Source: a virus
Lineage: Duplodnaviria; Heunggongvirae; Uroviricota; Caudoviricetes
Length of the DNA stretch: 7,862 nucleotides
IMG/VR virus record: IMGVR_UViG_2548876959_000005
Span: 1 to 7,862 of that record
Strand: one strand, 5' to 3'
The number at the start of each line of letters is the position of its first letter. Positions within the stretch are counted from its first letter, which is position 1. Shown here piece by piece: positions 952 through 4,264 of this stretch. Both the position numbers and the translations under genes were made by a program. Below the pieces are notes generated by a model. The model ran no database searches. It saw only the letters and a list, made by a program, of their open reading frames with translations, and was not told where the DNA came from.

Positions 952-993
952 TCCCGCATTTCGGCGGGACAATCCCATCAATGTTAAAGAGCC
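952..993 (-). promoter_or_regulatory. nutL: nutL: boxA-like element plus boxB hairpin (N utilisation site)
   Basis: Read on the minus strand: GCTCTTTAACA (boxA-like, plus coordinates 982-992), a 12-nt spacer, then TCCCGCCGAAATGCGGGA (plus 952-969; 6-bp stem, 6-nt loop). The hairpin is identical to the nutR boxB at 2650-2667. Located between pL and the N start, as in lambda. Confidence 0.65.
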
Positions 994-1038
994 TGCCAAT
1001 CTGTTCCGTTTGGCTACCAGCGTCCTGCTGATGGCTAA

Positions 1039-1125
1039 AGAATACTGTAGGTATTTTATTGTGTAAATACCCAAGGTATTTATTTTTGATGAAATAATGA
1101 TAAACAAATGAATACAAAGGATATT
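1039..1125 (-). promoter_or_regulatory. pL promoter with three OL operator-like palindromes
   Basis: Three AATAC-N5-(G/A)TATT sites at 1041-1055, 1066-1080 and 1111-1125. On the minus strand, -35 TTTACA (1062-1067) and -10 TATTCT (1039-1044) with a 17-bp spacer, overlapping sites 1 and 2. Orientation is toward N. Confidence 0.55.
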
Positions 1126-1211
1126 TATTTTTTCGGTATCTGCTTGTTCAGTGCTTTTTATGCGGGATATGTGAAGTGGATCCCGATAGCTATTGCTGCC
1201 GGGATTATGGG

Positions 1212-2316: not shown

Positions 2317-2351
2317 AGCTTAATTCTAATAGCTAAGGTACTTAAACTAAA

Positions 2352-2725: not shown

Positions 2726-3019
2726 ATGGTTCGTGCAAACAAACGCAACGAGGCTCTAAGAATCGAGAGTGCGTTGCTTAACAAAATCGCAATGCTTGGA
2801 ACTGAGAAGACAGCGGAAGCTGTGGGAGTTGATAAGTCGCAGATCAGCAGGTGGAAGAGGGACTGGATTCCAAAGTTCTCAATGCTGCTTGCTGTTCTTG
2901 AATGGGGTGTCGTCGACGACGACATGGCTCGATTGGCACGACAAGTTGCTTCGATTCTCACCAATAAAAAACGCCCGGCGGCAACCGAGCGTTCTGAACA
3001 AATCCAGATGGAATTTTAA
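2726..3019 (+). CDS. cII: Transcriptional activator cII
   Basis: 97-aa ORF (MVRANKRNEALRIESALLNK...ERSEQIQMEF) that I recall as nearly identical to lambda cII. AAGGA ribosome-binding site upstream. The track ORF beginning at 2639 is a spurious 5' extension that runs through nutR. Confidence 0.9.
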   Translation: MVRANKRNEALRIESALLNKIAMLGTEKTAEAVGVDKSQISRWKRDWIPKFSMLLAVLEWGVVDDDMARLARQVASILTNKKRPAATERSEQIQMEF

Positions 3020-3316: not shown

Positions 3317-4264
3317 ATGAGCAATACAGCAAAAATCTACGATTTCAGCGCCGCACACGAGCGCAGGAGCAACAGGATGGAGAACCAGAAAACTGGTTAC
3401 ATTCCGTTGTACCGGAGCATTCTGAAACAGTCATGGGCGAAAGATGTTTATCTTCGCACCCTGTGGGAAAACCTTCTCCTGAATGCCGCCAGAAAGCCAT
3501 ACAAAGCGAATTTCAAAGGTCATGAATGGCATCTGCAACCCGGTCAACTGGTTGTGACAGCAGCTGATTTAGGTCTTCAGTTATGCGACAGACATGGCAA
3601 GCCAGCAAGCCGTGATCAGGTTGAGCGGATGCTTCAGGTTTTTGTGAAAGAGGGGATGATCTCCATTGATGGAGAGAAGCAAAAAGGTCGTGTGATAACC
3701 ATCACAAATTACCATGAATATGCTCAAAAAATGGACAATTTACCCGCACATGAAGCCGCACAAACAACCGCACATGATGCCGCACATGGCGAAGCCAGTA
3801 ATGGCGCGGCTTTCAGCGCACATGCCGCACATGAAAGCGCACATGAAGCCGCACAAACAACCGCACATCATGAACAAGAAGGTATTAACAAGAATATAAA
3901 TAATACCCCCCTACCCCCCAATGGGGGAGGCGATGGGCAGGTTAAACCTGAACGTCGCAAGGCAGAACGAATCGACTACGAATCCTTCCTGAACGCCTAC
4001 AACACCGAAGTCGGTGACAGACTGCCACACGCTGTTGCGGTCAACGAGAAACGCAAACGCCGCCTGAAGAAAATCATCCCGCAACTGAAAACGCCAAACG
4101 TGGACGGTTTCAGAGCGTATGTCAGGGCGTTTGTGCATCAGGCCAAGCCGTTTTACTTCGGAGACAACGACACGGGCTGGACAGCTGATTTTGATTACCT
4201 GCTGAGGGAAGATTCGTTAACTGGAGTACGGGAAGGGAAGTTTGCAGACAGGGGGATTGCATGA
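3317..4264 (+). CDS. O: Replication initiator protein, O-like (origin-binding N-terminal domain, repeat linker, C-terminal domain)
   Basis: 315-aa ORF starting MSNTAKI, like lambda O. Internal repeat-encoded linker ([10 protein letters not shown]...) contains the iterons. C-terminal motif [10 protein letters not shown]. Its stop overlaps the helicase start (ATGA at 4261-4264). Confidence 0.8.
3744..3905 (+). repeat. Putative replication origin inside the O gene: about 9 iteron copies followed by an AT-rich segment
   Basis: Tandem units of roughly 12 bp (CCGCACATGAAG / CCGCACAAACAA / CCGCACATGATG / CCGCACATGGCG) at 3744-3791, then five more at 3817-3872. Includes a 31-bp direct repeat (3745-3775 and 3839-3869). 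Followed by AT-rich AACAAGAAGGTATTAACAAGAATATAAATAATA (3873-3905) and then a C-run/G-run element. Confidence 0.65.

Follow-up and report, generated by a model that had tools for sequence, protein, structure and literature searches.

The window, by which we mean the whole 7,862-bp stretch of DNA analysed here, carries a repressor gene, cI, on the minus strand (1600-2316), and its 238-aa product contains the Pfam domains HTH_3 and Peptidase_S24. Next to it and divergently oriented is a plus-strand cro gene (2423-2617; Pfam Cro, PF09048, E=3.6e-26), which is followed on the same strand by cII (2726-3019; Pfam PF05269) and, in the ORF list, by O-like, DnaB-like and nin-region genes. On the other side of cI, both on the minus strand, are a hydrophobic ORF resembling hkaS (1212-1580; 122 aa), which occupies the position of rexAB in lambda and gave no significant Pfam family, and a gene at 545-844 that is annotated as the N antiterminator gene in HK620 and its relatives. 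The match of this ORF to Pfam N_peptide was 21.9 bits, under the 27.9-bit cut-off.

The cI protein matched the lambda repressor structure 3bdn with E=3e-52 over residues 3-232, and the two proteins are homologous end to end. Covered by this alignment are the Ala-Gly cleavage region, the serine of GDSMT and the lysine of FKKL. The recognition helix, on the other hand, reads GITQGAVGHYLNGRN compared to GMGQSGVGALFNGIN in lambda (QGAVGHYLNG versus QSGVGALFNG). Taken with the Pfam assignments, this places an HTH and S24 self-cleavage repressor beside a divergent cro, as in a lambdoid immunity module.

When the region 500-2700 was used as a megablast query, it matched HK620, HK630, HK140, mEpX2, HF4s, HZ41, vB_EcoP-611R6 and some Stx2c-converting phages, with identities of 98.5-99.8%. 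The agreement with coliphage HK620 is complete (100%) at positions 1017-1135 (AF335538, the record of Clark, Inwood, Cloutier and Dhillon 2001, J Mol Biol 311:657), and identity is about 99% over 653-2700; the alignment offset to locus L001 was constant at 348. The cI protein is 100% identical to that of mEpX2, and 16 phage records hold a cI that is at least 99% identical. As cI, cro and both operator regions are near-identical to those of HK620, the window has the HK620 immunity type. In contrast, no phage record covered 80% or more of the whole window, which therefore shares the HK620 immunity module and is otherwise a different mosaic.

A preliminary description of this DNA had pointed out three palindromes with the consensus AATAC-N5-GTATT at 1041-1055, 1066-1080 and 1111-1125 and had read them as three OL operators overlapping pL. 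All three palindromes are present, with zero, zero and one mismatches, respectively. A motif search over the window allowing one mismatch found five matches compared to 0.17 expected, and none of 200 shuffled sequences reached five. The matches begin at 1041, 1066, 1111, 2352 and 2377, so that palindromes sharing one consensus flank the repressor gene on both sides, as in lambdoid modules. With two mismatches allowed, there were 12 matches compared to 2.7 expected. A site matching at 8 of 10 positions also occurs within the hkaS-like ORF (1411-1425). A repeat search independently recovered the sites at 1041, 1066, 1111 and 2352 as one family, and it also found a 45-nt inverted repeat of 1037-1081 and 2351-2395; from this repeat, the operator-promoter module on the left mirrors the one on the right. 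About 1.34 kb separates their centres (OL and OR).

On the leftward side, a promoter scan of 850-2450 returned a single sigma-70-like site, on the minus strand at 1067..1039, and it is the promoter directed toward N that had been proposed from the letters alone. Its -35 hexamer, TTTACA (1062-1067), is separated by a 17-nt spacer from its -10 hexamer, TATTCT (1039-1044), which falls within the pL of the HK620 annotation (window 1032-1067). The leader CCTGCTGAT is the same as that of lambda and lies at an equal distance from the -10 hexamer. This homology suggests that the minus-strand transcript starts at about position 1032, the A of ATCAGCAGGACGC; we take the lambda pL start to be at the matching position.

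We scored candidate operators with a position weight matrix (PWM), a symmetrised 19-mer matrix made from OL1, OL2, OR1 and OR2. OL1 (1041-1055, AATACTGTAGGTATT) matched the consensus exactly, scored 23.4 bits and is at about -9 to -23 of the inferred start, on top of the -10 hexamer. OL2 (1066-1080, AATACCCAAGGTATT), also an exact match, scored 25.8 bits and is at about -34 to -48, reaching into the upstream end of the -35 hexamer. The two centres are 25 bp apart. Each hexamer of this sigma-70 promoter is therefore overlapped by an operator, as with OL1 and OL2 in lambda, and the promoter is directed toward N, its first gene, and away from the repressor gene. We have little doubt that positions 1032-1081 constitute the leftward early promoter pL, with OL1 and OL2, of a lambdoid prophage. 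Since AF335538 annotated pL, OL1 (window 1040-1056) and OL2 (window 1065-1081) at these places in 2001, along with N, cI and cro at equivalent positions, this element was already known and is ordinary of its kind.

Downstream of pL, and upstream of N, the minus-strand nutL (952-993) is carried over from the AF335538 annotation. Reading the sequence, we placed boxA (GCTCTTTAAC) at 973-982 and a boxB hairpin (CCCGC/GCGGG) at 943-958, both on the minus strand, the latter just beyond the annotated span of nutL. The same boxA and boxB occur again downstream of cro, at about 2624-2668.

The rightward side showed the same organization. OR2 (2352-2366, AATACCCTGAGTATT) and OR1 (2377-2391, AATACCTGTAGTATT) match the consensus exactly, while OR3 (2328-2342, AATAGCTAAGGTACT), 24 bp from OR2, matches at 8 of 10 positions and scored 7.4 bits. 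The corresponding AF335538 features are OR3 at 2325-2341, OR2 at 2349-2365, OR1 at 2374-2390 and pR at 2363-2398. From the sequence we read pR on the plus strand at 2365-2393, with TTGATT (2365-2370), a 17-nt spacer and TATTCT (2388-2393), the latter overlapped by OR1; its hexamers match at 8 of 12 positions, which is under the threshold of the promoter scan. The -10 hexamer of pRM is likely TAGAAT (2328..2323), six bases ahead of the cI ATG. This distance would make the cI mRNA leaderless, as in lambda. A weak -35 hexamer for this putative promoter, also read from the sequence, abuts OR2.

Across relatives, the consensus followed the recognition helix of the repressor. A scan of one genome per species gave 94 relatives of cI, and 23 of these prophage loci, from Enterobacterales and Microbulbifer, kept the helix motif [ST]QG[AG]VGH[YW]. 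The genera represented are Lelliottia, Siccibacter, Enterobacter, Tatumella, Lonsdalea, Serratia, Pantoea, Providencia, Proteus, Yersinia, Pectobacterium, Kluyvera and Microbulbifer. AATAC-N5-GTATT occurred in all 23, which have OL1 and OL2 at a spacing of 24-25 bp on the downstream side of the repressor operon; the same-helix Enterobacterales loci that we examined had two or three sites upstream of cI (OR) as well, at 24-25-bp spacing. Relatives with other helices had the same pL scaffold and other consensus sequences: AGTAC..GTACT in phage Fostie, whose cI is 62% identical, ATAAC-N4-GTTAT in Stx1-type prophages, AGTAC-N5-GTACT in the VT2-Sakai type and AATAC-N5-GTACT in the ST64T/L type. A consensus that travels with the recognition helix is the behavior expected of a repressor and its operators.

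These data bear on the specificity of the repressor. The preliminary description had noted that the motif is unlike the lambda operators and had predicted a different immunity specificity from it. Lambda indeed uses 17-bp operators of the TATCACCGCCAGTGGTA type (consensus TATCACCGC...) compared to the 15-bp AATAC-N5-GTATT here, and the differing recognition helix of cI fits this difference. The pairing of helix and consensus across relatives supports a distinct specificity, and the specificity is that of the known HK620 type and is not a new one. More broadly, it ties AATAC-N5-GTATT to a conserved recognition helix in more than 10 genera of Enterobacterales.

The third palindrome (1111-1125, AATACAAAGGATATT) is a different case. 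It matches the consensus at 9 of 10 positions, the single mismatch being in its right half, ATATT. Whereas OL1 and OL2 overlap pL as had been claimed, this site does not: it is at about -79 to -93, centred near -86, and lies 44 bp upstream of the -35 hexamer. OL1 and OL2 also agree with the HK620 annotation as operators, whereas this site is not the OL3 of that record, which is at 1087-1103 (centre 1095). The distal site (centre 1118) scored 14.5 bits, the fifth best score in the window, and such a score was expected 0.03 times per shuffled window. It is 45 bp from OL2, centre to centre, compared to 20-25 bp for every other pair of operators. It could be argued that this keeps it in the same helical phase to OL2 as a normal neighbor, since 45 bp is 24 bp plus two turns of the helix. 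No third site was found at the lambda-type distance of 20-25 bp from OL2; the best match at +19 to +23 was 4 of 10.

The position of the third operator relative to OL2 varied among the 23 same-helix loci, being +21, +30 or +45. Sites at +45 that match at 8-10 of 10 positions occur in the window and HK620, Serratia phage OS31, Serratia bockelmannii, two Tatumella, Pantoea BAV3049 and Kluyvera. In the six diverged relatives of this kind (L008, L016, L017, L018, L068 and L035) the +21 position matched at no more than 4 of 10, and the Kluyvera site (L035) is a perfect 10 of 10. Siccibacter and Enterobacter have a 9 of 10 site at +30, while loci from Lonsdalea, Pantoea, Providencia, Pectobacterium and Yersinia have a third site at +21 (8-10 of 10). 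In the Yersinia prophages the +21 and +45 positions each hold a site, and the resulting four sites have spacings of 24, 21 and 24 bp. The loci with a +45 site are mostly from one cI clade (helix 2 ..TQY[ST]IAD..), and common descent may therefore explain some of this conservation. Phage Fostie was set aside as a guide to the third site, given its AGTAC/GTACT-type sites and different layout.

To compare positions within the +45 group, we made an ungapped alignment and measured information content in the half-site columns and in the central five columns. The half-sites of OL1 and OL2 had 1.89 and 2.00 bits compared to 0.65 and 0.76 in their central 5 bp. The +45 site gave a similar result (1.66 and 0.70 bits). 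At the +21 position, where the annotated OL3 would be, the values were 1.07 and 0.58 bits and the conserved letters were off consensus. The conserved-variable-conserved pattern typical of operators is therefore present at the distal site and absent from the annotated OL3. Among seven near-identical copies from E. coli and phages there were ten variable columns, none of which fell in the 30 half-site positions; this comparison has low power (P about 0.24).

Loci L004 and L005, which have another immunity type on the same scaffold and operators of the ATAAC-N4-GTTAT type, carry GATAACAAAGGTATT at the distal position. Its left half matches their own consensus at 5 of 5 positions, and the site as a whole matches their own consensus and AATAC-N5-GTATT alike at 8 of 10. 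Covariation of the distal site with the immunity type of these loci is suggestive only.

From the score and the comparison between relatives, we lean slightly toward the distal palindrome being a functional operator. It is highly likely that the whole represents an HK620-type pL/OL module in which the distal palindrome is probably a weak auxiliary operator, by analogy taking the role of ‘OL3’ in this lineage. The new OL3 position is a candidate only and a modest refinement of the existing annotation.

The distal site also overlaps another conserved element. An AT-rich run at 1122-1133 (TATTTATTTTTT) includes part of the right half of the palindrome and begins 90-91 bp upstream of the inferred +1. 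Its offset is equal in the window, lambda, L004, L005, L008, L012, L016 and L020, and the run is kept even in relatives whose +45 position matches an operator at just 4-7 of 10 positions; the loci with this equal offset include some that match there at 6 of 10. It follows that part of the match of the distal site to the consensus is inherited scaffold. In 1998, Giladi et al. reportedly described a ‘distant UP element’ that, together with IHF, stimulates lambda pL; the AT-rich element of lambda is at -90 to -101, which is presumably the position of that element. Here, the IHF consensus (WATCAANNNNTTR) with up to one mismatch did not occur between OL2 and the distal site, the only match nearby being one that overlaps OL2, and its matches in the whole window were below chance expectation. 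Neither inspection by eye nor the promoter scan found a second promoter like lambda pL2 near the distal site. Quite possibly, though short of probably, the third OL operator that functions in HK620-type phages is the distal site near -86, built into this AT-rich upstream element, and not the annotated one beside OL2.

One alternative is that only two OL operators work, as in phage 933W, and that the distal palindrome is a non-functional resemblance. The resemblance could arise from the AT-rich element (...GGnATTTATTTTT) together with a left half-site that is a relic or present by chance, or from an old duplication of OL2 plus its flank. Several observations are consistent with this. The element AAGGnAATTTATTTTT is at the same distance from pL in lambda and in relatives that have a +21 operator; the repeat search found 82% identity over 22 nt between OL2 plus flank and the distal site plus flank (family D1); the 45-bp spacing is atypical; and 933W has only OL1 and OL2 at OL out of its five operators, so that a lambdoid phage need not have three OL sites, as work of the Koudelka laboratory shows (PMC3317979). 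However, the +45 element matches at 8-10 of 10 in loci lacking the +21 site and at 5-7 of 10 in loci having it, the Yersinia loci L025 and L026 (8 of 10) being the exception. Outside the AT-rich run, the left half-site is also kept (AATAC, AATAT, AATCT or AGTAT) despite free variation in the central 5 bp, and the perfect Kluyvera site and the rarity of a 14.5-bit score in shuffled windows likewise argue against a mere resemblance. We regard this alternative as possible but doubtful.

A second alternative is that the third operator is the annotated OL3 itself, as a very weak site that is filled through cooperative contacts with the dimer on OL2. It was named by the authors of AF335538, and it is 22 bp from OL2, like OL2-OL3 in lambda and the +21 sites of eight related loci. 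A passage in PMC5880393 also reports that lambda repressor bound to specific sites promotes adjacent non-specific binding. In contrast, the annotated OL3 matches the consensus at only 4 of 10 positions, and its PWM score of -19 bits ranks 1845 of 7844 positions, which is background. The sequence has diverged freely in the relatives of the +45 group without a half-site pattern, and one of the ten polymorphisms among the close copies, at 1089, falls inside it. The sequence does not support the annotated OL3 as a sequence-specific site, this reading is very unlikely, and scoring and comparison both favor 1111-1125 as the third site.

The HK620 record also places a terminator, ‘tIMM’, at 1100-1130, and the distal palindrome lies within it. 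Its hairpin has a predicted energy of -1.1 kcal/mol (z=+0.37), and 119 of 200 shuffled sequences folded at least as well; a terminator scan found nothing there. With an unstable hairpin and an empty scan, tIMM is not convincing as an intrinsic terminator. A longer fold, 1085-1215, was mildly better than shuffled sequences (z=-2.4) and is without a clear U-run. It includes an imperfect longer hairpin at 1100-1150 and a GC hairpin at about 1180-1205, neither of which is followed by a U-run, and neither the folds nor the terminator scan located the end of the cI-hkaS transcript. Both OL3 and tIMM are probably mis-annotated in the reference HK620 record.

The remaining alternative, that the palindromes are not repressor operators and either arose by chance in AT-rich intergenic DNA or serve another protein such as IHF or a terminator hairpin, draws on the AT-richness of the region and the tIMM label and is highly improbable, as no shuffled sequence reached the observed counts, the same motif recurs at OR where it overlaps pR, it co-occurs with one recognition helix in more than 10 genera, and the tIMM hairpin and the IHF search gave nothing in its favor.

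By analogy with lambda, and with binding, cooperativity, occlusion and looping all being predicted from that analogy, the HK620-type module would work as follows. Both cI and Cro are expected to recognize 15-17-bp pseudo-palindromes of the form AATAC-N5-GTATT. Two cI dimers, one on OL1 and one on OL2 at a distance of 25 bp, would prevent RNA polymerase from using pL, probably with the cooperativity known from lambda. In the lysogen, N and the leftward early genes would thus be kept off and the cell would be immune to any phage that has these operators, while OR1, OR2 and OR3, having the same motif, would control pR and pRM. Self-cleavage of cI stimulated by RecA should lift the repression, as suggested by the alignment of the Ala-Gly site, the serine and the lysine with those of lambda.

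The distal site would be filled at a higher concentration of repressor. There, a third dimer may stabilize the OL complex, take part in a loop between OL and OR, or cover the adjoining AT-rich element. If this is true, then, unlike at OL3 of lambda, repressor bound there could prevent the activation of pL from upstream or give the OL-OR loop another geometry. Our literature search, which covered sources other than the text of Clark et al. 2001, found no published binding, footprint or transcript data on an HK620-type cI.

The module resembles that of lambda in having cI between two inverted operator-promoter modules, in its homologous leader (CCTGCTGAT...), in the AT-rich run that begins 90-91 bp upstream of +1 and in the order of nutL and N downstream. 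It differs in its operators and recognition helix and in the third site, which is 20 bp from OL2 in lambda compared to 45 bp here. The OL-OR distance also differs, being about 2.4 kb with rexAB in lambda compared to about 1.34 kb with one small ORF here. Operator sites away from a tight cluster have some precedent. Carlson and Little reportedly described in 1993 an extra lambdoid operator, OFR of HK022, that is away from the cluster, and lambda cI is said to bind separated sites cooperatively (Hochschild and Ptashne, in 1986). As in these cases, the candidate distal site would be a repressor site outside the cluster that contributes via protein-protein contacts. Unlike them, it lies upstream of pL and is predicted from sequence.

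The repressor of 933W is likewise lambdoid and recognizes 15-bp rotationally symmetric sites; its repressor and consensus, on the other hand, are unlike those described here, and it is reported to bind adjacent sites without cooperativity (PMC3317979).

For the most part, these results re-identify pL and OL of a common lambdoid immunity type and add little new biology. The variable position of the third OL operator within one repressor family nevertheless suggests that lambda-type switches tolerate rearrangement of their auxiliary sites. The HK620 immunity type includes some Stx2c-converting phages, and among 5426 complete E. coli genomes, 146 carried the OL segment with a coverage of at least 80%.

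The transcribed pL leader (GAGCCTGCCAATCTGTTCCGTTTGGCT.CCAGCGTCCTGCTGATGG, window 990-1039) was compared with those of lambda (L091) and the related prophage and phage loci L004-L007 and L009. Identity was 80-98% across prophages whose repressors and operators differ considerably, and the carriers of this common leader include lambda, phage 21 (imm21), P22, VT2-Sakai and Stx1 phages. Sharing of the leader among prophages of differing repressor and operator type argues that the promoter-operator boundary is the exact place of a mosaic joint.

On the operator side, the position of the third OL operator was surveyed in genome contigs (loci L011-L027, L035 and L068). Its distance from OL2 varies within one repressor family (+21, +30 or +45 bp), some members lack it altogether, and two Yersinia prophages (L025 and L026) possess four OL sites with spacings of 24, 21 and 24 bp. 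Upstream of the inferred pL start, at a distance of 90-91 bp, an AT-rich run begins (ATTTATTTTT, 1122-1133). A run at this distance also occurs in lambda and in six other loci (L004, L005, L008, L012, L016 and L020), and its offset from the inferred start is independent of operator type in all of these and the window. For lambda pL a "distant UP element" has been described, to which the run may correspond.

Between cI and OL lies a hydrophobic 122-aa ORF on the minus strand (1212-1580) that resembles hkaS of HK620 and for which a Pfam search returned no significant family. In lambda this place is occupied by rexA and rexB; in the Serratia phage vB_SspS_OS31 (OS31) there is no hkaS-like ORF and cI adjoins OL directly. 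Because it is absent from OS31, the ORF looks like a lysogen-expressed moron. The "tIMM" terminator annotated in HK620 (AF335538; window 1100-1130) has a folding energy of just -1.1 kcal/mol (z = +0.37), and folding of 1085-1215 revealed no evident true terminator of the cI-hkaS transcript.

The hkaS-like ORF also contains two operator-like sequences, each matching the consensus at 8/10 positions: GATATCCCTTGTATT at 1411-1425 and a further match 41 bp away at 1370-1384. In a repeat search (pair I5) the first of these repeated the distal OL site at 1111-1125 almost perfectly in inverted orientation (13/14, spacer included). Since chance alone would yield about 0.2 inverted repeats of this kind in the 1.5-kb stretch, the resemblance may be a coincidence. 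Alternatively, 1411-1425 could be an additional weak repressor site.

At the other end of cI, the likely pRM -10 hexamer TAGAAT (2323-2328, minus strand) was read from the sequence six bases ahead of the cI ATG, with a matching -35 hexamer, TTTAGT (2351..2346, minus strand), adjoining OR2. The six-base gap to the ATG would imply a leaderless cI mRNA, as is found in lambda. In OS31 (L008), the annotated cI start (3441-3451) adds 23 residues at the N-terminus (MVGIFNFNSDGIRMTVM-ESKKSL...), an extension that would reach across OR. Translation probably begins instead at the Met preceding ESKKSL.

A boxA (CGCTCTTTAAC-like) and boxB were read from the sequence downstream of pL (943-982), and the same pair downstream of pR (about 2624-2668). 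The boxB hairpin is identical at both (TTCCCGC-CGAAAT-GCGGGAA, transcribed strand). The HK620 annotation identifies them as nutL and nutR, respectively, of a phage-21/H-19B-type N system.

Within the O-like replication gene, two tandem arrays of a 12-bp repeat (CCGCACATGAAG; 3744-3788 and 3825-3868), with 3.7-3.8 copies each, both encode a His/Ala-rich stretch of the protein. They are probably origin iterons, like those carried by lambda ori.
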